64,000 nt of DNA from Dehalococcoidia bacterium (GTDB taxonomy: Bacteria; Chloroflexota; Dehalococcoidia; Lucifugimonadales; Australimonadaceae): NCBI GenBank assembly GCA_965248065.1, contig OZ252088.1:1740773-1804772 (forward strand), written 5' to 3'. Shown piece by piece: positions 17,415 to 60,975 of this stretch; the stretch's first letter is position 1, and each line of letters starts with the position of its first letter. The position numbers and the translations under genes were made by a program. Below the pieces are notes generated by a model that ran no database searches, was not told where the DNA came from, and saw only the letters and a list, made by a program, of their open reading frames with translations.

Positions 17415-18380
17415 ATGAACACTCCCCTCTTCTCCATCGGCGGAAGCTCAGGACTCGGCTGGCAGGCATTCCTCGACGTCTGCACGGCCTGTGAGGAGAC
17501 GGGCTACTTCGCCTTCTACCCCTCCGACCACCTCATGACCGTTCAAGGAGGGAAGGGGCCCTCGCCCGACCGTCTCGACGCCCTCACGGCGATGGCCGCG
17601 GTCTCCGGCTACACCAAGACCCTCCGCCTCGGCGTCCTCGTCGCCAACAATCTCTTCCGCCATCCGGTGATGACCGCCAAGATATTCAACACCATCGACC
17701 ACGCCTCGAACGGACGCGCCGAGCTCGGCCTGGGCGCCGGCTGGTCGGAGCCTGAGCATCGCGTACACGGCTTCCCGTTCCCGCCGCCCGCCGAGCGTAT
17801 CGCCATGATGGACGAGGCGCTCTCCGTCGTCCGCGCCATCTGGACCGACGAGCCAGCCACTTTCCACGGCGAGCACTACAGCTTGCACGAGGCCCCGCAG
17901 ATGCCGAAGCCCGTCCAGCAGCCGTATCCGCCCATCATCGTGGGGGGCATCAGCGGCCGGACGATGCGGGTCGCCGTCAAGCACGCGGACGATTGGGACC
18001 AGATAGCGCCCGTCCGCCAAGTCGCCCGCAACATCGAGCGATTTCGGGCGGTCGCCGCCGAGATGGGCCGCGACCTCACGAACATGCGCTTCTCCGTCCA
18101 AGTTCCCTTTGCGTTCGTATCGAGCAGGGCGGAGGCCGAAGCCGTCATAGACAACGCCGTGGCCAGCTTCAACTACGGCGCCCACAACGTTGCCCCCGGC
18201 TACGCCGACCTCCGGGAGCACGTCGCCGACTCACGCCTGCTCGGCTCGCCCGACGAAGTCGTCGAACAGGTGGGGCGGTGGGTCGAGGTGGGTGTCAACC
18301 ACTTCATCCTGACCACGCCGCGCCCCTTCAACCGCGAGCCGTTGGAGACGTTCATGTCCGAAGTGGCCCCCGCGTTTTGA
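17415..18380 (+). CDS. LLM-class (luciferase-like) F420/flavin-dependent oxidoreductase
   Basis: FYPSDHLM, RLGVLVANNLFRHPVMTAK and ELGLGAGW motifs are present. The N-terminal 311 aa of the 632-aa ORF are antisense to the Gfo gene. Confidence 0.8.
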   Translation: MNTPLFSIGGSSGLGWQAFLDVCTACEETGYFAFYPSDHLMTVQGGKGPSPDRLDALTAMAAVSGYTKTLRLGVLVANNLFRHPVMTAKIFNTIDHASNGRAELGLGAGWSEPEHRVHGFPFPPPAERIAMMDEALSVVRAIWTDEPATFHGEHYSLHEAPQMPKPVQQPYPPIIVGGISGRTMRVAVKHADDWDQIAPVRQVARNIERFRAVAAEMGRDLTNMRFSVQVPFAFVSSRAEAEAVIDNAVASFNYGAHNVAPGYADLREHVADSRLLGSPDEVVEQVGRWVEVGVNHFILTTPRPFNREPLETFMSEVAPAF

Positions 18381-18462: not shown

Positions 18463-18672
18463 ATGGCGCGCACCAACATCGACATCGACGATCAGGCGTG
18501 CGCAGAGGTCATGCGGCGCTACCAGCTCGCCACCAAGCGCGAGGCGATCAACTTCGCCCTGCGGACGTTGGCGGCCGAACCCGCGTCTCTCGACGAGGCC
18601 CGCGCCCTCCGGGGGATTGGTTGGGAGGGCGACCTCGACGCTCTGCGCTCCGGCCGTTCGTCATGGTCCTGA
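18463..18672 (+). CDS. vapB: Type II antitoxin VapB (MARTNIDIDD type)
   Basis: MARTNIDIDDQACAEVMRRYQLATKREAINFALR is the classic VapB N-terminus. Confidence 0.85.
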   Translation: MARTNIDIDDQACAEVMRRYQLATKREAINFALRTLAAEPASLDEARALRGIGWEGDLDALRSGRSSWS

Positions 18673-19070
18673 TTGACACCTCGGCGTGGATAGAATTCCT
18701 CCGGAACACGGGTTCCATGGTTTGCGAGGCGGTTGACGAGTTGCTGGCGCACGAGGTCGCCACCTGCGATGCAGTGAGGATGGAAGTGCTCGCCGGGGCG
18801 CGGGACGAGTCGCACTTGCTGGGCCTTCGGCGACTTCTTGCGCGGGCTGCGGTGATCCCGACGCGGGCGACGGACTATGACGATGCCGCCGCACTCTATC
18901 GCCGTTGCCGGCGGCAGGGGGAGACAGTCCGAAAGCTGATTGACTGTCTCATCGCCTCCATAGCCGTACGCGCCGGCATCCCGGTCTTGCATAGCGACGC
19001 CGACTTCGAAGTGCTCGCTCGCCACACGGAGCTTGAGGTCTATACGCCCGAACGCGCACGAGGAAGCTGA
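18663..19070 (+). CDS. vapC: Type II toxin VapC (PIN domain)
   Basis: MVLIDTSAWIEFLR..C..E..D acidic pattern of a PIN domain. It overlaps the vapB 3' end by 10 nt. Confidence 0.85.
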   Translation: MVLIDTSAWIEFLRNTGSMVCEAVDELLAHEVATCDAVRMEVLAGARDESHLLGLRRLLARAAVIPTRATDYDDAAALYRRCRRQGETVRKLIDCLIASIAVRAGIPVLHSDADFEVLARHTELEVYTPERARGS

Positions 19071-19107
19071 GGCGGCTGTCTGCTTCAGAAATAAGAAAGC
19101 CTCCTAT

Positions 19108-19146
19108 CCGTCATCCCGCGCAGGCGGAACCTCGTAGCGGCGCGAC
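19108..19146 (-). repeat. M1-variant hairpin repeat (GTCATCCCGCGCAGGCGGAACCTCGYAGCGGCGCG)
   Basis: Near-identical to 21246-21284. It is inverted relative to the M1 copies at 1696 and 52870. Confidence 0.8.
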
Positions 19147-19211
19147 AGCTGCGAAGCGCGGGGGAGGAGAGCGGCGGCGCGCAGGCTTCCCCCTCCATCA
19201 AAGGGGGCGCT

Positions 19212-19261
19212 GCGACATTTGCCCCTTCCGCCAACGCTATCTCTCCTCCTACACTGACTCC
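19212..19261 (+). repeat. C-rich box M3 (GCGACAYYTGCCCCTTCCCCCA..CTACCATG), degenerate copy
   Basis: The sequence is GCGACATTTGCCCCTTCCGCCAACGC... The family has five copies: 19212, 21308, 32975, 51271 (inverted) and 60434. Confidence 0.7.
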
Positions 19262-19303
19262 CGATATCTACACCCCCGAGACCGGAAGCTCCTCTCCCCC
19301 CTC

Positions 19304-19449
19304 CTACGAGTGAAATGAGACTAAATGAGACCAAATGAGACCTTTTTTCAGCAGCCGCTTTCCCCTCACTCGTAAACCTCCCCCATTTGCGAGTGACGCC
19401 AACGCGCCATTTCACCCTCGAAGCGGAAGCGCCGGCGCCTCATTTGCGT
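19304..19449 (+). repeat. Structured element M4, copy A (word AAATGAGAC x3); candidate ncRNA
   Basis: CTACGAGTGAAA, then three AAATGAGAC words at 10-nt spacing, then CTTTTTTCA. Hairpin 19367-19376/19386-19395 contains one T-G pair. Complements to the word region lie at 19408-19415 and 19439-19445. Confidence 0.6.
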
Positions 19450-19664
19450 CCAGCTGCGCCGTCGACGCGTCGCGTCTATCCCCGACGCGTCTCCAGACCT
19501 CTCCGCAATGCTCCCGGATGGCAGTGCAGTGCGGCGTAGCGGTGGCGAGTCCATTGAGGGGCCTACCGCGCCCTCGCAATCGCCCTAGGGACGGGCGACG
19601 CGCTATCATCCTCTGCGGCGCCACATACTCAGGAAGGCGCTCCATAGACATCAGGAGGCTACCC

Positions 19665-20624
19665 GTGGGCAAGGTGCTATTCAGCGTTGGCGGGAGTTCA
19701 GGGCTCGGCTGGGATGACTTTCTGGAGATATGCCAGACCTGCGATGAGCTCGGCTTCCACGGCTTCTACCCGTCGGACCATCTCATGCAGATCAATCCGG
19801 GCCGGGGCGCGACGCCCACGCGGCTCGAAGGGCTCACGGTCATGGCGGCGATGGCCGGCCACACCAAGCGCCTCCGTCTCGGGATGCTCGTCATCAACAA
19901 CAACCTCCGCCACCCCGTTATGACCGCCAAGATCGTCAACACGATCGACCACGCCTCGGGCGGCCGCGCCGAGATGGGCATCGGCTCGGGCAACGTCAAG
20001 CACGAGTTCGACGTCCACGGGATGCCGTTCCCGCCCTTCGCTGAGCGCGCCGAGCGGCTGGACGAGGCGCTCTCCGTCATCAAGGCCATCTGGCAGGACG
20101 AGCCCGCCAGCTTCCAGGGCAAGTACTACAGCCTGGACGAGGCCCCCCAGATGCCCAAGCCCGTCCAGCAGCCGCACCCGCCCATCATCGTCGGCGGACG
20201 CGGCGATAGGACCCTCCGAATCGCCGCCAAGCACGCCGACGACTACAACCAGATCGCGCCGCTGGAGGAGGCGAAGGTCAACCTCGCCCGTATGCAGGCC
20301 GTGTGCGATGAGACCGAACGCGACTTCTCAGCCATGCGCCACTCGGTCCAGATTCAGATCAAGCTGACCGACGATAAGTCGGCGATAGAGGCAACCGTCG
20401 CGCGGGGCGCGAGCCTGGCCACCCAGCGCACCGACTACTACGCGAGCCCCGAGGACCAAGTGCGCGACAGCATGTTCCTGGGGTCGTCATCGGAGGTCGC
20501 CGAGCAGGTCGGCCGGTGGATCGAGGCCGGGGTGGACCACTTCATCCTGATGACGCCGCGCCCGTTCGACCGGGGGATGATGGAGCGCTTCGCCCAAGAG
20601 GTGGCGCCTCAGTTCGCAGGGTAG
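19665..20624 (+). CDS. LLM-class F420/flavin-dependent oxidoreductase (paralogue of 17415-18380)
   Basis: Collinear motifs FYPSDHLM, RLGMLVINNNLRHPVMTAK and EMGIGSG. GTG start at 19665 follows an AGGAGG. Confidence 0.8.
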   Translation: MGKVLFSVGGSSGLGWDDFLEICQTCDELGFHGFYPSDHLMQINPGRGATPTRLEGLTVMAAMAGHTKRLRLGMLVINNNLRHPVMTAKIVNTIDHASGGRAEMGIGSGNVKHEFDVHGMPFPPFAERAERLDEALSVIKAIWQDEPASFQGKYYSLDEAPQMPKPVQQPHPPIIVGGRGDRTLRIAAKHADDYNQIAPLEEAKVNLARMQAVCDETERDFSAMRHSVQIQIKLTDDKSAIEATVARGASLATQRTDYYASPEDQVRDSMFLGSSSEVAEQVGRWIEAGVDHFILMTPRPFDRGMMERFAQEVAPQFAG

Positions 20625-20633
20625 GGGCGGCGA

Positions 20634-21098
20634 CTACTTGCTCTGCCCGATGCGCGCCACAACCGCGAACTCCGCCTCCGTCACCGGCGTGATGGAGAGC
20701 CGGTTGCCGCGCTTGAGCACGACCATGTCGGCCAAGGCCGGTTCTTCCCTGAGCTCGTCGGCGGTGACGATGTCGTTGAACTTGTGGTCGGCTTGGATGT
20801 CGACCATCCACCAGATGGGGTTGTCCGGCGTGCTCTTGGGGTCGGGGTGGTCCGAGTCCGGGTCCCAGGCCGTGTGGTCGGGGTACCCCTCGCGAACCAC
20901 GGTTGCCGTCCCGACTACGCCGATAGGGTTCGCGCTCGAATGCCAGAATAGGATGCGGTCGCCCGGCTTGATTGCGTCCCGCAGCCAGTTGCGGACTTGG
21001 AAGTTGCGCACGCCGTCCCACTCGGAGACGCCGTCGGCAACCAGATCGTCGAAGGAGTAGGTGGTGGGCTCGGACTTGAACAGCCAATAGCTCGTCAT
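20634..21098 (-). CDS. EVE (PUA-like, DUF55) domain protein
   Basis: YWLFKSEP..YSFDDL..W.GVRN.Q.RN.L..I..GD...FWHS is the canonical EVE N-terminus. Confidence 0.85.
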   Translation of the reverse strand: MTSYWLFKSEPTTYSFDDLVADGVSEWDGVRNFQVRNWLRDAIKPGDRILFWHSSANPIGVVGTATVVREGYPDHTAWDPDSDHPDPKSTPDNPIWWMVDIQADHKFNDIVTADELREEPALADMVVLKRGNRLSITPVTEAEFAVVARIGQSK

Positions 21099-21245
21099 CG
21101 CAGACCTCTTGGGTGGTCCGGCAGGCTGACCACGAGCCTATCTGATGGGCTCGTTCGATGAGCTCGCCGCGAACCGATTTGCAGAATCAGCCCCGAGTCG
21201 TGGGGGTTCCCCGAGTATAAACGACGCGCCCGGACTAGGAGGGGG

Positions 21246-21284
21246 CCGTCATTTCCGCGAAGGCGGAACCTCGCAGCGGCGCGG
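21246..21284 (-). repeat. M1-variant hairpin repeat
   Basis: The sequence is CCGTCATTTCCGCGAAGGCGGAACCTCGCAGCGGCGCGG. Confidence 0.8.
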
Positions 21285-21307
21285 TCCTTCCCCTCCCCAC
21301 CCAATCA

Positions 21308-21353
21308 CGACACTTGCCCCTTCCCCCAACGCCCCTATCCCTCTACCATGACC
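21308..21353 (+). repeat. C-rich box M3
   Basis: The sequence is CGACACTTGCCCCTTCCCCCAACGCCCCTATCCCTCTACCATGACC. The complement carries four G-runs. Confidence 0.8.
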
Positions 21354-21420
21354 GCCCCCGACCCTGTACGAGGACACCCCGGCTCCGCTGCGCAACCGCG
21401 CCCCGCGCCGCCGCTCCGGC

Positions 21421-21521
21421 CTCACGAGTAAAATTGCGCACTTTTGCGCGCCTTTGCGCACTTTTCACCCCTCCCACTCGTAAACCTGCGCATTTTACGA
21501 GTGAGGAGCAGCGCAAAAGGC
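21421..21521 (+). repeat. Structured element M4, copy B (word TTGCGCRC x3); candidate ncRNA
   Basis: CTCACGAGTAAAA, then three TTGCGCRC-type words, then CTTTTCA. A perfect 10-bp hairpin lies at 21475-21484/21494-21503. GCGCAAAAG (21511-21519) is complementary to CTTTTGCGC (21441-21449). Confidence 0.6.
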
Positions 21522-21673
21522 AGGCGTTTTCGGCCCCGTTGTGAGTAATGACGGAGGGGGCGCGGAACGACGGAGGGCACGGCTCACTACCTCTGCGAGG
21601 GGCCTATTTTCGAAGCAATCTCTCATGTGGGCCTGTCGGCCCACGTCACAACCGACGAAAATGGGGGTGGAGC

Positions 21674-21710
21674 GGCCCCCTCTCTAACTCCCCTCCGTCT
21701 GCGGGGGAGA
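21674..21710 (+). repeat. M2 repeat
   Basis: The sequence is GGCCCCCTCTCTAACTCCCCTCCGTCTGCGGGGGAGA. Confidence 0.8.
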
Positions 21711-21751
21711 AGATTATTGGGGGAATGACGGAAGGAGTCCGAGGTGACGGT

Positions 21752-22309
21752 GTGAAGAAGAGCGGGTCGCAAGGCCGGCGGTCGACCCTGGTTCGAGCCG
21801 CGTTGCTGGCGGCGCTCGCGCTCGTAGCGGGCGCCGCTCCGGCGTACGCCCACGGACAGCACGAGCTCGAGGTCGAGCTGTTCAGGGGCGCGAAGGGGCC
21901 CTATGAGCTCTGGGTCACCGCCGTGCCCCTGGTCGGCTTCCTGGAAGTCGCGGTGACGTTCGAGCCGGATGCTCCGGACGCTGAGCTCGGCTACAGCCCG
22001 CGCGTCGTGGTGTCGGCGACGAGGGACGGCGTGCGGCTCGGCCCTAAGACCGCAACCCGCGCCTTTCTCGTCACGGCCAATGACTACTCGGCCACCTTCG
22101 ACCCCGGCGGCGAGGGACAATGGGAGATCGTGATCAACATCGATTCCGAGCGCGGCCCCGAGACGCTCACGCTGCCGGTGACCGTAACCCAGGGGAGGGG
22201 CTTCCCCTGGACGGCGCTGATCGCCGGGCTGGGACTGGTCCTGCCTATCGTCTGGCTGGCGTGGGGGGCCGTCCGGCGCAAGGGCCGCGCCAAGCGGCGG
22301 AGAACATGA
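21752..22309 (+). CDS. Secreted protein with C-terminal membrane anchor (predicted mature N-terminal His)
   Basis: Signal peptide ..LVAGAAPAYA followed by HGQHE, plus a C-terminal TM and basic tail. GTG at 21752 was chosen because the upstream ATG lies inside repeat DNA. Confidence 0.55.
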   Translation: MKKSGSQGRRSTLVRAALLAALALVAGAAPAYAHGQHELEVELFRGAKGPYELWVTAVPLVGFLEVAVTFEPDAPDAELGYSPRVVVSATRDGVRLGPKTATRAFLVTANDYSATFDPGGEGQWEIVINIDSERGPETLTLPVTVTQGRGFPWTALIAGLGLVLPIVWLAWGAVRRKGRAKRRRT

Positions 22310-32867: not shown

Positions 32868-33290
32868 GGGCTCCCCCCTGCCTCTGCAAGAGGGGCCGCG
32901 CCCGGCTCTCCTCTCGCGGACGGGAGGGAGTTTATCGTCCTCTCCTCCGCCTGCGGGGGAGACTGAGAGGGGCCGCGACATCTGCCCCTTCCCCCATCCC
33001 CCACCAACCCCTACCATGGACTCCGACAGACTACGCGCTGTCCCCTTCCGTTCCCCTCCTTGCCAAGGAGGGGCTAGGGGTGGTCCCACAGGGGGTCCGG
33101 CGCCCCCCACCAGCCCCGGAAATCCGGGGGGTCGAATTTCTTGAATTCTTGCATTCTTAACCCCCTTCCACCGCACCACGGCCTGGTAAACAGGATCAGA
33201 AAGTTCCGGGGAAAATAAGTTCTTGCCCCCCACTCCGCCGCCCGGCGACCGCGCCACGGCCACGTAAAGGCGGCTCCGAGTCGGCGTTGG
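32868..33290 (+). repeat. Composite repeat block R1 (M2-like hairpins + M3 + M5)
   Basis: M3 lies at 32975-33028 and M5 at 33124-33268. The block is an inverted counterpart of 50803-51325. Confidence 0.8.
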
Positions 33291-44689: not shown

Positions 44690-45834
44690 CTCGGGAAGCC
44701 GTAGAGCGCGACGCAGTTGTCATGCACGATCTTCCGCATGTCCTCCTGCGCCTCGGGACCGGCGAAATCGCGCTCGATGAACTCGCGGGACTTCGGCCAC
44801 GTCGACGCGGCGTGGGGGTAGTCCGACGACCACATCACCCGGTCTACGCCGATGTCTCCCCGGTACTGGATTCCCACCTCGTCGTCGATGTAGGTGACGT
44901 ACACCTGGCGGGCGAAGTACTCCGTCGGCTTCATGCTGAGGGGCGTCGAGAAGCCGCCGCGCCTGCTCGACCCGCGCCCCACTGTGCTGTTCACCCGGCC
45001 GAGCCAGAAGGGGACCCAGCCGACGCCGTACTCCGCGGAGATTACGTTGAGGGTGGGGAACCGCTCCAGCACCCCGGAGGCGATGATGACCGCGAGCGAT
45101 TTCTGCACCTCGTGCGCCGCGATGATCGGCCGCAGGACGCGGTTCTCCCGCCCAAACTCGTACTTTGGCCGCTCCATGCCCGTCGGGGGATGGAGGCTGA
45201 GGGGCATCCCCAACTCCTCCGCCCGGCTCCAAAAGACATCGTACATGTCCAGGTGGTACGGCTGGTCCTCGGGCGGGGAGGCCCAGATCATGGCGCCGCT
45301 GAGTCCCATCTTGGCGCAGCGTTCGAGCTCCTCGGCGCCGAGCTTCGGGTCGTACAGCGACACCAGCGCCAGCCCCTTCAGCCGGTCCGGCGCGTAGCTG
45401 CAGTATTCAGCCAGCCAATCGTTGTACACGCGGAAGCACTCGCGTTGCAGGGCCGGGTCTTGCAGCCAGAAGAGCCGGAAGCCAAGGGTCGTATAGAGGA
45501 CCTCGGCGGCCACGCCGTCGACGGCCATATCCTTCAATCGCTCCACCGGGTCCCACCCGCCTGGCCGGGCGTCGGCGTACCCGCCGGTCTTCATGAACTC
45601 GACCTTCTCGTCCTCGGTGCGGCTCTGGCCCGCCGCCACCCCGACGGCGAGATCGTGGGGCTGGTAGCCCTCGTAGACCCACCACGCCCCCGGAACTCCG
45701 TTGTACTCGTCCTCCACATGCGGCGCGCGGTCCCGGAACTGCGCGTCCATCCGCGTTGTCCACAGGTCCAACGGCTCACTCATGTGAGAGTCCGACGATA
45801 TGTACCAAGCATTCGCCGTCGGGGCATTCGCCAT
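44674..45834 (-). CDS. Amidohydrolase-2 (ACMSD/decarboxylase-like) family protein
   Basis: [10 protein letters not shown] metal-binding start and ..MWSSDYPH end motif are present. ATG at 45834 follows a GGGAGGA RBS. Confidence 0.75.
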
Positions 45835-45983
45835 CGGTTTCCTCCCATGCGTCAGTGCGCCCAACTATCCTCTCAGCCGCCCACGCCGTCAATCTCCCGC
45901 AAGCCGGTCATGCGGGCGCCTGGGCGCATCCCACTTCCGAACGCTACAATGTGTTGCGCCTGCTAGAAACCCCGAGCATCGCT

Positions 45984-47657
45984 ATGAGCAACGAGCCGCA
46001 GCCTGTCGAGCAGACGGCCCCCGCCCAGGACCGTGTGCTCGCGTTGGGCATGGACCGGCGGCGGTTCATGGTGAAGGCCGCCGCCCTTGGGCTGACCGCG
46101 ACCGCCATGCCCGCCTTCCTCGCCGCCTGCGCGCAGCTCGACGCGACTGCAACCGCTTCAACCCCCACGCCCGCGAGCACTCCCTTCCCCACGCCAACCC
46201 CGTTCCGTGAGGCAGCCGTTACGCCCTCCCCGACGCCCACGGCGACGCCGGTTTCGCCGACGCCGACCGCCATGTCTGCGCCTACGGCAACGCCGGCGCC
46301 CACGGCAACGCCAACCCCCACGCCCGCGCCCACGGCAACGCCGACGCCTACGGCAACGCCGACCCCCACGCCGACGCCTACTCCAACGCCGCTCCCACCC
46401 TTGCTGGCCGGCGAGGACGCCCGCGTTAGCCACTTGCTATGGCGCGCCGGGTTCGGCGCGTCGCAGGCGGAGCTGGCCCGCTTCCGCGGCATGGGACTGC
46501 AGGCGACGATCGATCACCTCGTCGATTTCGAGTCCGTCGACGACGAGCCGCTGGAAGCCCGCCTGGCCGAGCAGAATCTCGATTTGGAGGGCAAGCTCAA
46601 TCACCTCCAGCGCTGGTGGCTCCAGCGCATGGCGTATACAGAGCGGCCTTTGCAAGAGAAGATCACTCTCTTCTGGCACGGCATCTTGACCAGCTCCTTC
46701 AAGAAGACCGGCGACGGACCGCAGATGCTGCAGCAGAACCAGCTCTTCCGTACGCAGGGCATGGGCCGGTACAGCGACATGCTGAAGGCCGTCTCACGCG
46801 ACCCTGCGATGATGATCTATCTCGACAGCCGCTCCAATAAGAAGGCGGCCCCCAACGAGAACTACTCCCGCGAGCTCATGGAGCTCTTCAGCCTCGGCAT
46901 CGGGCCCTACTCCGAGGACGACGTCCGCGAGTCGGCGAGGGCCTTCACCGGCTGGCAGCTGAAGCGCAAGACCGAGTTCTTCTTCAACGAGCGCCAGCAC
47001 GACTTCGGCGATAAGACCTTCCTTGGGCAGACCGGCGATTTCGACGGCGACGACATCGTCGACATCATCATGGCCAAGCCCGCCGCCGCCGAGTACGTCT
47101 GCACGCGGCTATGGCGGTTCTTCGCATACGACGACCCCGAGCCCGCCGTCATCGCGCGCCTCAGCGCGATCTTCAAGTCCGACGATTTCTACTCCGACCG
47201 CGCCGCCGCCGCATTGGTGAAAGCGCCTGTCGAACTCGCCGCGGGCGCGGTGCGGTCCCTCGAGGTCAGCACCGACTTCGTCCCGCTCGACCCTATCATC
47301 GAGAAAATGGGCCAGGCGCTCTTCGTTCCGCCCAACGTGGCGGGCTGGCCGGGCGGCGTTACGTGGATAAACAGCTCAACCCTCCTCCAACGCGTGAACA
47401 TGGCCAACGCTATCGCGACCGCCCGCCGCGGCCGCATGCGGTTCGATCCCAAACGGCTCGTGGAGGAGCACGCCGCCGCCGGGTCCGAGGGCATCGTCAC
47501 CTTCTTCGGCGACCTGCTGCTCGGCCCCCGGCTGCGCCGGACCGAGCGCCAGCTCCTCGTCTCCTTCCTCGAGGGTCTGGACGACTCATCACTCAACGAG
47601 AAGCTGCGCAGCGTCGCCTTTCTGATGCTCGCGTCGCCGGACTTCCAGCTGGCATGA
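45984..47657 (+). CDS. DUF1800 domain protein with Tat signal and Thr/Pro-rich linker
   Basis: [14 protein letters not shown] is a twin-arginine signal. A long [10 protein letters not shown] linker follows, and [23 protein letters not shown] is DUF1800-like. Confidence 0.75.
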
Positions 47658-52732: not shown

Positions 52733-52869
52733 GAGAGCCTCCTCAAAGAGCGCTCTCGTCGCGGGTGAGCGCGCGTCGATTCTAGGCGCGGTCAGCGACC
52801 GCTACAAGCTCGCCGCGGACTGCCCCTTCTCTCTAGCAACGATGAAAGTGGCGGGTGGGGCGCCGATAC

Positions 52870-52903
52870 CTGGATTCCCGCCTGCGCGGGAATGACGGAA
52901 GGG
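52870..52903 (+). repeat. M1 hairpin repeat
   Basis: The sequence is CTGGATTCCCGCCTGCGCGGGAATGACGGAAGGG. Confidence 0.85.
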
Positions 52904-56338: not shown

Positions 56339-56346
56339 AGGGGCGA

Positions 56347-56373
56347 GGTTCCCGCCTGCGCGGGAATGACGGG
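56347..56373 (+). repeat. M1 hairpin repeat
   Basis: GGTTCCCGCCTGCGCGGGAATGACGGG lies between convergent genes. Confidence 0.85.
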
Positions 56374-56383
56374 ATTGGGGGGG

Positions 56384-59114: not shown

Positions 59115-60401
59115 ATGAGCTACGCCGCCGACCTGCACCTCCATTCCCGGTACGCCGGCGGGACCAGCCCCAACCTGTCGTTGGAAGCGATGGCGTGGTG
59201 GGCGGGCGTCAAAGGCGTCCGGCTCCTGGCGTGCGGCGACTTCACCCACCCTGAATGGCTCTGCGAGCTGAAAGACAAGCTCCGACCTGCCGCGGACGGC
59301 CTGTTCGACCTCACGCCGGAAGCCGTCCGCCCGTCGCCGGTCCGCCCGCCGGCCGATGGCGCCGCCGCGACTCCCCGGTTCGTCCTCGGCACGGAGGTCA
59401 GCTGCGTCTACCCGCAGGACGGCCGCGGCCGGCGGCTGCACCTGCTCGTGCTCGCCCCCGGCTTCGATGTCGTCGATGGCCTGTGCGCCGCCTTCTCGCC
59501 GCACGGCGCCCTCGCCTCCGATGGACGGCCAATGCTCAGCCTCTCGGGTCGCGATGTCGTCGAGGCCGCGCTATCCGTCAACCCGCGCTGCGAGGTGATC
59601 GCGGCCCACGCGTGGACGCCCTGGTACTCGGTCTACGGGTCCAGGGGCGGTTTCGACTCGCTCCAAGAGTGCTTCCGCGACATGACCCCGCATATTCACG
59701 CCATCGAGACCGGCTTATCGAGCGACCCGTCGATGAACTGGCGCGTGCCGGAGCTGGACGGACGGACCATCGTATCCTTCTCCGACGCTCACTCGGCCCC
59801 GAGGATGGCCCGCGAGCTGACGGTGTTTCCCGGCGAGCCGAGCTACGACGGCCTGCTCGAATCCCTGCGAGGCGGCAGGGTCGAGTGGACGGCCGAGTTC
59901 TACCCCCAAGAGGGCAAGTACCACTACGACGGCCACCGCAAGTGCGCCGTCTGTCAGCATCCCGCCGTGACTCTGGAGCGCGGCGATAGATGTCCCATTT
60001 GCAGCCGCAAGCTGACCCTCGGCGTCCTTCACCGCATGGAGGCGCTATCCAGGCGGCCCGCCCCGGAGCTCCCGCGAGCGGACGACGGCCTGCTCCGCGA
60101 CCCGGACGGCGCGCGTCCGCCCTTCAGACGGCTGCTCCCCTTGGAAGAGGTCATCGCCGAGGCCTTGGGCCGCCGCGTCGCTGCGAAGGCCGTGCGCGCC
60201 GCCTACCTCAGCCTCATCGAGAACGTCGGCACGGAGCTCGACGTGCTGATTGCAGCGACGCCCGCCGCCATCGAGTCCGTCGCGGGCGAGCGCATAGCCG
60301 AGGGAGTGCTGCGCGCCCGCCTTGGCCAGGTCGAGGTGCGCCCCGGGTTCGACGGCGAATACGGGAAGGTGCGCCTTTGGCCCCTTAGCTCGTCTGTGTG
60401 A
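59115..60401 (+). CDS. Endonuclease Q (EndoQ) family protein
   Basis: PHP-like ADLHLHSRY, AHAWTPW, GLSSD, FSDAHS and a Zn-finger C..C...CPIC are present. The protein is collinear with archaeal EndoQ. Confidence 0.8.
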   Translation: MSYAADLHLHSRYAGGTSPNLSLEAMAWWAGVKGVRLLACGDFTHPEWLCELKDKLRPAADGLFDLTPEAVRPSPVRPPADGAAATPRFVLGTEVSCVYPQDGRGRRLHLLVLAPGFDVVDGLCAAFSPHGALASDGRPMLSLSGRDVVEAALSVNPRCEVIAAHAWTPWYSVYGSRGGFDSLQECFRDMTPHIHAIETGLSSDPSMNWRVPELDGRTIVSFSDAHSAPRMARELTVFPGEPSYDGLLESLRGGRVEWTAEFYPQEGKYHYDGHRKCAVCQHPAVTLERGDRCPICSRKLTLGVLHRMEALSRRPAPELPRADDGLLRDPDGARPPFRRLLPLEEVIAEALGRRVAAKAVRAAYLSLIENVGTELDVLIAATPAAIESVAGERIAEGVLRARLGQVEVRPGFDGEYGKVRLWPLSSSV

Positions 60402-60433
60402 GAGGGCAGGGAAGGAGGGGAGGGGGCCGCACT

Positions 60434-60480
60434 GCGACATCTGCCCCTTTCCCCAACGTCCTTCCCCGCCTACCATGTCC
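60434..60480 (+). repeat. C-rich box M3
   Basis: The sequence is GCGACATCTGCCCCTTTCCCCAACGTCCTTCCCCGCCTACCATGTCC. Confidence 0.8.
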
Positions 60481-60524
60481 CCCTCGCAGCCCATGCCCGA
60501 TTCCGCGCCGGGCCGCCGTCCCAA

Positions 60525-60627
60525 CTTACGAGTAAATGGCGCTAAATGGCACCAAATGGCACACTTTTCAAGCCTCTCCACTCGTAGACTCGTGCGATGT
60601 GCGAGTGGCTGCTTGCGCCATTTTCGG
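60525..60627 (+). repeat. Structured element M4, copy C (word AAATGGCRC x3); candidate ncRNA
   Basis: CTTACGAGTAAA, then three AAATGGCRC words at 10-nt spacing, then CTTTTCA. Hairpin 60578-60586/60600-60608 contains a T-G pair. GCGCCATTT (60615-60623) is the exact complement of word 1 (60534-60542). Confidence 0.6.
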
Positions 60628-60735
60628 CCCGTTCCGGCCCTTTACGAGCGACAATCGCGTCGGACGGAGCATAAAGCGGGGCCGCAGGAGACGCCGCTTC
60701 GTAGAAATCAGCACTTTGACGTAAGCAGAGGTTGT

Positions 60736-60975
60736 ATGGACGAGATAATCACCATGGAAGACATGGCAAAGGTCTACGAAGTCACCGACGAGCTCGGCAT
60801 CGACCGGGAGGCCATCAACGTGGAGCTGGGCAAGGAAGACCCGGGCGCATGGGGCAGGGGAGACGGCGGAATGATGAAGCGGGACGTGATCGAAATCACG
60901 CTTCCCCTCACCACCCCGCTGGAGGACTGGCTGCCCGTATTGAAGTCCGGTCTGGCCCAGCTGGCGAAGGAGTGA
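60736..60975 (+). CDS. Small hypothetical protein (79 aa)
   Basis: The third-position GC bias looks coding and AGAGG precedes the ATG. The stop lies 4 nt before the next gene. No family recognised. Confidence 0.45.
   Translation: MDEIITMEDMAKVYEVTDELGIDREAINVELGKEDPGAWGRGDGGMMKRDVIEITLPLTTPLEDWLPVLKSGLAQLAKE

Follow-up and report, generated by a model that had tools for sequence, protein, structure and literature searches.

A modular intergenic repeat with a tripled 10-nt word, probably an inserted member of a mosaic repeat family, in a Dehalococcoidia bacterium

The question raised by this locus is whether a structured intergenic element serves the genes that follow it or simply lies in front of them. 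The element, termed copy C, occupies the gap before an operon that starts at 60737 in a 64,000-nt stretch of a Dehalococcoidia bacterium (assembly GCA_965248065.1, contig OZ252088.1, positions 1,740,773–1,804,772; this whole stretch is hereafter the window). The genes on its 3' side are a small open reading frame (ORF), a phosphoenolpyruvate (PEP) mutase gene, an HbpS/GlcG-like gene and a Rieske gene. The element is a composite of a box, M3, and a module, M4, the latter holding a 10-nt word in three tandem copies, a hairpin and a complement of the word. An earlier reading made without database searches, the sequence-only reading, had noted the order M3, M4, + strand operon at three loci and proposed a promoter or leader function rather than random debris. 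We favour, with modest confidence, a different answer: copy C is probably one insertion of a modular interspersed intergenic repeat of a narrow Chloroflexota clade, closest to REP/BIME mosaics and to BOX; any activity of it would most likely be that of a folded + strand RNA inside the transcripts of its neighbours. From the comparisons below, the element would not be a dedicated regulator of the PEP-mutase operon.

Direct reading of the + strand places word 1, AAATGGCGC, at 60534–60542, and words 2 and 3, both AAATGGCAC, at 60544–60552 and 60554–60562. As 10-nt tandem units they read AAATGGCGCT, AAATGGCACC and AAATGGCACA (60534–60563), and Tandem Repeats Finder reports a period of 10 nt and 3.0 copies over 60533–60562. 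The word complement, GCGCCATTT (60615–60623), can pair with all nine bases of word 1 and with eight of nine in words 2 and 3; it is the 3' strand of a predicted helix, P1, that encloses the hairpin P2. The latter consists of arms CCACTCGTA and TGCGAGTGG (60578–60586/60600–60608, + strand) around a 13-nt loop, with nine pairs of which one is T60585·G60601. The sequence-only reading had given the words, the complement and the hairpin with its T·G pair at these positions, and its M3 box at 60434–60480 was recovered by a repeat-family analysis of the window; the small ORF, PEP mutase and GlcG genes that it named downstream are present. Neither the words nor their complement is readily produced by chance. 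The word AAATGGCRC has five matches in the window against 0.56 expected, and five or more were reached in 0 of 100 dinucleotide-preserving shuffles; the fifth match is the GCGCCATTT of a sister element, copy A (19404–19412). A 9-nt word complement within 140 nt downstream of the copy C words has a p value of about 0.008–0.017 in dinucleotide shuffles.

Copy C has two sisters in the window. Three matches to the skeleton ACGAGT-N-CTTTT-N-CACTCGTA, all on the + strand, stand against 0 expected; they span 19306–19450 in copy A, 21424–21530 in copy B and 60528–60623 in copy C. The entire copy A (19212–19450) comprises M3, ACGAGTG, three copies of AAATGAGAC, the hairpin, GCGCCATTT at 19404 and CTCATTTG at 19439, and copy B (21307–21530) comprises M3, ACGAGTAA, the words AATTGCGCAC, TTTTGCGCGC and CTTTGCGCAC, the hairpin and GCGCAAAAG at 21511. 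Alignment of the three copies identifies as conserved blocks M3, ACGAGT, the three 10-nt words, CTTTTCA, the hairpin CACTCGTA…CGAGTG and a word-complementary block 6–8 nt 3' of the hairpin. The word itself differs from copy to copy (AAATGAGAC in A, (A/T)TTTGCGCRC in B, AAATGGCRC in C), and the complement changes along with it in B (GCGCAAAAG) and C (GCGCCATTT). Copy A carries at the usual complement position GCGCCATTT, that is, the complement of the copy C word, and holds the complement of its own word, CTCATTTG, 44 nt past the hairpin. The earlier view that the composite is not random debris is thus upheld, inasmuch as it is both structured and repeated.

The relatives used for comparison are loci retrieved via the neighbouring proteins; their DNA is ~88–95% identical to the window, ~0.3 Mb of the clade was sampled in this way, and the PEP mutase homologs bear the source labels Chloroflexi or Dehalococcoidia. 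Alignments of the orthologous locus reveal that M3 and M4 are absent from the copy C site in seven related assemblies; an eighth, L028, has a gap of 142 nt in which neither M3 nor the hairpin was found. From the MJ0043_C-domain gene to the small ORF the distance is 334 nt in the window versus 63–135 nt in the loci L005 to L012. In blastn comparisons of L010 and L005 with the window, homology ends at 60385 and restarts at 60705. The intervening stretch without a match to the relatives' site (60386–60704; 319 nt versus 114 nt in L010) holds the whole M3–M4 composite; by eye, similarity picks up again at about 60655. Copies A and B are absent from the orthologous sites in L024–L026, and at the sites of C and A the native sequence adjoining the downstream genes is conserved with or without the element. 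This presence and absence at aligned orthologous sites shows that copies have been gained or lost between relatives. A GCGACA-like motif recurs at both edges of the composite in direct orientation in the empty-site alignments; it may mark a core for recombination or reflect a preferred target. It corresponds to the first bases of M3, and its far-edge copy is GAGCGACAATCG (60648–60655); the right edges of two larger blocks in the relatives L029 and L030 carry AAGCGACAGAAATG and AAGCGACACTGATG, and the empty site in L005 and L010 carries TTGACACGCGG.

Diverged members extend the repeat family to at least five genomes, namely that of the window and four other Chloroflexota genomes (L006, L027, L029 and L030). 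Member D (L006, 20586–20800) lies 3' of an amidase gene, between genes that are probably convergent, and contains an M3-like box, CACGAGT and the words AAATGACCCA, GAATGAGCCA and CAATGAGCCC. It was first flagged by a weak match in a covariance-model search. The model, trained on A, B and C, detected no additional full copies in the window and 11 loci. Member E (L027, 592–700) occupies the same intergenic site as copy C and has the copy C word (AAATGGCGsC), with CAGGAGT followed by AAATGGCGGC, TAATGGCGCA and ATTTGGCATA and without the CACTCGTA hairpin; it may be either an ancestral element that was lost repeatedly or a re-insertion at a preferred site. Members F1–F4 (L029) and G1–G4 (L030), at least four per genome, reside on the minus strand within mosaic blocks of 1.0–1.3 kb (L029 2147–3179 and L030 1877–3191, both minus) between a CoA-transferase and an acyl-CoA dehydrogenase gene. 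These blocks are made up of M3 boxes, CGTC-tagged REP-like palindromes and several M4-like modules, and the gap that holds them is 12–43 nt in L028, L027 and L006. A 270-aa ORF called across the L030 block has no Pfam hit and is probably spurious.

Comparison of all these members shows which parts of the M4 core are kept. An ACGAGT-like motif opens it, three 10-nt words and a T-rich run follow, and then comes a CACTCS…SGAGTG hairpin; the window subfamily adds the word complement. The first motif reads ACGAGT in A, B, C and D, GGAGT in E, and CGAGG or ATAGG in L029 and L030. The family consensus word is approximately AAATGAGnC; its WWTG start is kept across arrays, and the five bases after it vary between arrays and are uniform inside each. 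One array consists of two unlike units in L029 (AAATAAAGGCC and AAATCGGGCC; ~2290–2270, minus) versus three copies of AAATCGGGCC in L030 (2026–1997, minus), so that word arrays are shown, at the level of aligned orthologs, to expand or homogenise between close relatives.

These distributions bear directly on the proposal that the composite is the promoter or 5' leader of the operon starting at 60737, and likewise of the operons after A and B. All three window copies stand on the + strand upstream of + strand genes, M3 has a promoter-like geometry, and E lies at the same site before the same operon with a promoter that is positive in a sequence scan. We nevertheless regard this proposal as very unlikely. 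The operon is intact without the element in the seven assemblies, with a short gap lacking M3 and hairpin in L028, and its native upstream sequence is conserved irrespective of the element. The genes downstream of A, B and C have no relation to one another; they encode a luciferase-like monooxygenase, a protein of unknown function and PEP mutase. F1–F3 and G1–G3 are antisense to both flanking genes, and D probably sits in a convergent gap. Because B is located between divergent genes, only A and C are informative on orientation in the window, and their co-orientation with the downstream genes has a chance probability of ~0.25; the sampled relatives already point to no orientation bias toward downstream genes. 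The order M3 then M4 noted in the sequence-only reading does recur in other genomes, whereas the co-oriented operon that completed it fails in the relatives, and of the promoter or leader function only the promoter part is weakly supported, by the geometry of M3. A cis-regulatory leader or riboswitch was rejected on the grounds of unrelated downstream genes, absence at orthologous loci and antisense or convergent copies in relatives.

Folded as + strand RNA, copies A, B and C are more stable than their shuffled counterparts, with z values of -3.5, -3.3 and -2.7; the corresponding minus-strand values are -1.1, -3.5 and -1.7, clearly better than shuffled only for B. The RNAalifold consensus of the three comprises the outer helix P1, formed by a word and its complement, around P2, with compensatory differences in B versus A and C. 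Three sequences have little statistical power, and further members were therefore sought. Among eight members, P2 position 8, which is pair six of the CACTCS/SGAGTG core, is intact throughout, as G-C in five members and C-G in three; position 9 has T-A in four, T·G in the other four and C-A in none. The cells of the eight hairpins are paired in 80.7% of cases versus 28–41% with a slid partner strand, and the covariation score was reached by 11 of 500 shuffles. On the opposite strand each T·G pair would turn into a C·A mismatch, so that the + strand is probably the folding strand. The word complement has p values of 0.006–0.02 per copy in A, B and C (dinucleotide shuffles) and is marginal in F2, F3 and F4; over nine family members, Fisher's combined p is 5e-4. 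A block GGCCTCATTT in L029 and L030 pairs instead with a nearby word-like AAAYGAGGCC.

On the reading that we favour, the composite would consist of the M3 box, a variable C-rich spacer and M4, set amid CGTC-tagged REP-like palindromes in mosaic blocks, in the manner of BIMEs or pneumococcal BOX elements. The unit would act as a + sense single strand, most likely RNA, arising by read-through from the upstream gene or from a start at the promoter-like M3, and this strand would fold into the outer P1, using one of the three words and the complement, around the inner P2. The element would persist mainly by spreading or by being tolerated. Any effect on neighbours would be generic, with a stable structure in co-transcribed RNA that may influence 3'-end stability, processing or read-through.

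Several smaller features of copy C belong to this architecture. The words are immediately preceded by the ACGAGT motif (60528–60533, +), which is similar to the 3' arm of P2 and could take its place in pairing with the 5' arm. The CTTTTCA run (60564–60570, +), kept in A, B and C, follows the third word, and together with the AAAT of each word it forms four A/T tracts in a 10–11 nt phase. The spacer between M3 and M4 (60481–60527, +) is C-rich, G-poor and not conserved in the alignment of the copies; M3 and spacer together contain 48 C and 17 G in 94 nt. The tail (60621–60655, +) reads TTTTCGGCCCGTT, common to copy B, and then TTACGAGCGACAAT. A G-rich stretch upstream (60396–60433, +) can pair with the C-rich M3 to give a long imperfect hairpin, and an Rfam E-value search of 60396–60480 returned many weak matches resembling miRNA precursors on both strands, which is the signature of a long hairpin. 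In copy A a comparable partner is found upstream of M3, GGGGGAGGAGAG with CTCTCCTCC.

M3 boxes precede A, B and C (starts at 19212, 21307 and 60434, all +), and further ones at 32975 (+) and 51324 (-) precede another module, M5. In copy C the box begins with GCGACATCTGCCCC and contains TTTCCC (60448–60453, -35-like), a 17-nt spacer and TACCAT (60471–60476, -10-like). Twelve M3 instances in the five genomes keep TTsCsC, a 17–18 nt spacer of variable sequence and TAnnnT; the shared bases are the TT of the -35 and, in the -10, T at positions 1 and 6 and A at position 2. This geometry is sigma-70-like and lends weak support to the promoter idea, and M3–M4 could possibly be a self-contained small transcription unit. 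The corresponding alternative is that M3–M4 is a small RNA gene, in which a sigma-70-type M3 promoter yields a ~150-nt transcript whose 3' half, M4, folds into P1 and P2 and leaves two of the three words (each containing AAAUG) unpaired as seed or decoy, the gene family spreading as a unit; we consider this a lesser possibility. The kept hexamer positions and spacing favour it, as do the L027 version of M3, which is positive in the promoter scan (TTGCGA, 17 nt, TATGAT; score 9/12), and the orientation of M3, always directed at M4 or M5. The M3–M5 copy at 32975 lies between convergent genes, with room for a short RNA only, and the stable folds and T·G pairs speak for the + strand. On the other hand, a consensus promoter scan found no sigma-70 promoter at the window copies (60300–60800; 19050–21800), the -35-like hexamers match TTGACA at two or three of six positions, and the best-conserved part of M3, CGACAnyTGCCC, is upstream of and outside the hexamers. 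A scan of 60300–60800 revealed no intrinsic terminator; P1 ends in TTTT yet encloses ~70 nt. The distance from M3 to M4 ranges from 35 to ~95 nt, with REPs or other modules in between in L029 and L030, and there is no Rfam match. The composition of M3 and spacer (48–54% C, 13–20% G) would be just as suitable for Rho loading where the upstream gene ends. A sigma-54 promoter within M3 was dropped for wrong spacing, and a promoter inside M4 (TTTTCA with TAGACT) for its variable spacer of 13–22 nt.

The words may alternatively work as duplex DNA, as an array of three direct sites plus an inverted one, spaced by one helical turn, that binds a multimeric protein (a transposase, recombinase, partition-type or nucleoid protein). 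The phased A/T tracts would then bend the DNA, and the hairpin would be a cruciform or a single-strand recognition site, as at IS200/IS605 or REP ends. The period is exactly 10 nt in all arrays, WWTG is found in nearly all words, and the AAAT/TTTT tracts are in phase with the T-rich run. L030 has the word as an inverted pair, AAATGAGGCC-5 nt-GGCCTCATTT, and gain and loss are compatible with a mobile element. HUH transposases read irregular hairpins, which the T·G pair at a fixed stem position may recall. Against such a site stands the behaviour of the word itself, as positions 5–9 differ between copies and are uniform within each, which a single protein would not require, and in B AAAT becomes TTTT and the complement likewise. 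No transposase, recombinase or Rep gene adjoins any copy in the annotated loci of the window and relatives, and neither terminal inverted repeats nor a target duplication are seen. We therefore judge a duplex binding site unlikely.

M4 might also be a new kind of programmable single-stranded element, with a 9–10 nt word that is free to change and is held as three tandem copies and one complementary copy. It might be either a mobile small RNA gene with an M3 promoter, the tripled word being a guide, decoy or register switch, or an element whose words are re-copied from the complement by a templated process. Templated re-copying would account for the within-copy uniformity, for a count that stays at three and for a complement that varies along with the word; we hold this possibility to be quite improbable. 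A copying of the words from the local target was rejected, as no such match was found at the one empty site inspected (copy A), although GGAGTATGGCGCA at the L005 empty site and the presence of the copy C word in E hint in that direction.

A count of exactly three is also what a leader peptide would need. Where the word is AAATGAG, the frame opened by the ATG in word 1 closes at the TGA in word 3, and translation of the resulting 7-codon ORF would melt P1. Such an ORF is present in A (MRLNETK), D (MTQNEPQ), F1 (MNQNESE) and F4 (MIGNERK), and its in-frame stop requires exactly three units. The pattern is, however, an automatic product of the repeat; B has no ATG, E has no early in-frame stop past the words, and the GAG(G) sits 1–4 nt from the ATG, too near for a normal ribosome-binding site. 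In copy C, where the frame runs for 62 codons, the 7-codon ORF is missing and the leader peptide is thereby excluded; we hold this explanation to be highly improbable. The 62-aa protein from ORF 60536–60724 was itself rejected, having no counterpart in A or B.

Returning to an inserted, RNA-acting mosaic repeat, several points weigh against it. At ~88–95% DNA identity, deletion in the relatives is as possible as insertion in the window, and the site and word that E shares with copy C would be compatible with repeated loss of an old resident element. The empty-site alignments show no terminal inverted repeats and no clean target-site duplication; with these and a partner transposase all missing, presence and absence at orthologous sites are what the case for mobility stands on. 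The word complement was not found in D, E and F1, so P1 may be limited to one subfamily. That the active form would be RNA, rather than single- or double-stranded DNA, is our inference, and the strict count of three homogeneous words is unexplained by a merely selfish repeat. Finally, the patterns used for wider searches were fitted to the three window copies and would miss D, E, F and G, which leaves the narrow distribution unproven.

Those searches covered several collections. The exact M4 skeleton pattern gave four matches in 185,579 species genomes, all taken as chance: the two that were read, L002 and L004, have no word triplet, and L001 and L003 belong to unrelated taxa. The skeleton and hairpin patterns had 0 matches in viral contigs, the M3 pattern had 11 chance matches in JGI metagenomes and 0 in viral contigs, and blastn of the composite against plasmids retrieved nothing. 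Rfam gave no hit over the whole window at gathering thresholds; E-value searches of 19100–21800 and 60380–60760 gave chance-level matches to miRNAs and CRISPR repeats, none better than E = 3.8 over M4. ARAGORN found no tRNA or tmRNA in the window, which thus offers no tRNA-linked integration site. A T-box-like mechanism in which UGGC pairs with the 3' end of a tRNA was discarded since the words of A and B do not fit, and an oriT or nic site 3' of the hairpin was discarded in view of three copies in 64 kb and no relaxase.

Comparison with known systems helps to place the family. Neisseria Correia elements and enterobacterial ERIC/IRU are also repeats of intergenic DNA, which can bring promoter elements with them and form RNA structures with effects on neighbouring transcripts; terminal inverted repeats and a TA target duplication define them, and neither was found for M3–M4. 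The HUH Rep iteron-plus-hairpin origins of pMV158-type plasmids, geminiviruses and circoviruses combine a conserved hairpin with short direct repeats, often including one inverted copy, and resemble M4 in that the repeats differ between lineages and the hairpin is kept. In those origins the rep gene is adjacent, there is one origin per replicon and the loop carries a conserved nick sequence, whereas M4 has several copies per 64 kb of chromosome, no rep-like gene among its neighbours and loops that differ between copies, and an origin of this type was rejected.

Of the two closest likenesses, one is to the CGTC- and GTAG-tagged REP/BIME repeats (PMC3733652), which are short, structured, strain-variable intergenic repeats that often lie just 3' of a co-oriented gene, form mosaics and are thought to act as RNA hairpins; the true CGTC-tagged REP-like palindromes that flank M3/M4 in this clade fit the REP super-families of that study. 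M4 differs in not being a simple 20–40 bp palindrome, and REPs have no counterpart of its tripled 10-nt word or its long-range complement. Its P2 is a 31-nt hairpin, of which there are three in 64 kb and others in L029 and L030. The P2 flanks, CTCTC (5') and GCTGC (3'), carry no GTAG or CGTC tag, GTAG occurring only within the copy C stem, and it is the neighbouring palindromes CCGTCATTCCCGC…GCGGGAAT that carry CGTC. No RAYT gene was seen among the annotated loci of the 64 kb window and the ~0.3 Mb of relatives.

The pneumococcal BOX (boxA-boxB-boxC), RUP and SPRITE repeats (PMC3049150) are likewise modular, with a variable number of internal units, a narrow clade and extensive secondary structure; they are expressed with neighbouring genes, turn over slowly between strains and are probably parasitic, and we have followed this parasitic-repeat reasoning for the family of copy C. 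BOX has no sequence relation to M3–M4, and its terminal inverted similarity was not found there. The boxB repeat unit is ~45 nt, compared with 10 nt in M4. A Porphyromonas gingivalis MITE (miniature inverted-repeat transposable element) with an internal minisatellite (PMC4596501) is similarly a small non-coding mobile repeat that holds tandem direct repeats; it has terminal inverted repeats and longer units, as opposed to the 10-nt unit of M4, held at three and without terminal inverted repeats. An IS110-family bridge RNA or seekRNA, possibly as a solo copy, was a lead prompted by PMC12288879. Such an RNA would have two internal loops, with target and donor guides, and an IS110 recombinase gene elsewhere would bear the same RNA. 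The predicted M4 fold has no two-loop layout, and no recombinase gene was seen in the loci read.

A tripled 10-nt word that is uniform within a copy and has a matching complement is not standard in REP, BIME, BOX or MITE. If our reading is true, the elements would represent an undescribed mosaic-repeat family in a poorly studied, mostly uncultured Chloroflexota lineage of soil and sediment, and such modules would be the source of much of the intergenic difference between close relatives there. Annotators should mask them instead of calling ORFs across them. If M3 is a promoter, the elements would be movable transcription starts that could rewire the expression of neighbouring genes.

The window holds other repeats. 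A second composite, M3–M5, occurs at 32975–33270 (+) and 51324–50760 (-), and in L010 at 1124–790 (-); it is absent from L005, L011 and L012 and has no Rfam match. M5 contains TTCTTG three times with an 8-nt period (33138–33158) and a hairpin whose arms differ between copies yet pair (CAGAAAC/GTTTCTG versus CTAGAAACAGAAA/TTTCTGTTTCTAG), and the copies at window 51324 and in L010, though not the third, have a later CCAAGAATTG complementary to the word. REP-like palindromes of the type CCGTCATTCCCGCGnnGGCGGGAAT, with a CGTC tag, are located at 403–437, 1695–1729, 19108–19135, 21248–21275, 52869–52903 and 56343–56377; they are numerous in L029 and L030, adjoin M3/M4 and fit the CGTC REP super-family of Di Nocera et al. 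(PMC3733652). A palindrome family of ~46 nt, GGCCCCCTCTCTAACTCTCCCCCGTCTGCGGGGGAGAGTTAGAGAGGGGG, is found at 1589, 15929, 21666 and 50948, often immediately upstream of M3.

Near copies A and B, a vapB–vapC toxin–antitoxin pair (18463–19070) lies between paralogous luciferase-like monooxygenase genes (17448–18380 and ~19665–20624). Of this pair, L024 has vapB alone, and both genes are missing from L025 and L026; the PIN assignment of vapC was made from its sequence (MVLIDTSAW…) and not by a profile search. Elsewhere in the window, a Pro/Thr-rich coding repeat with an 18-nt period (46218–46398) is contained in ORF 45597–47657, and a run of 18 G occupies 431–448.

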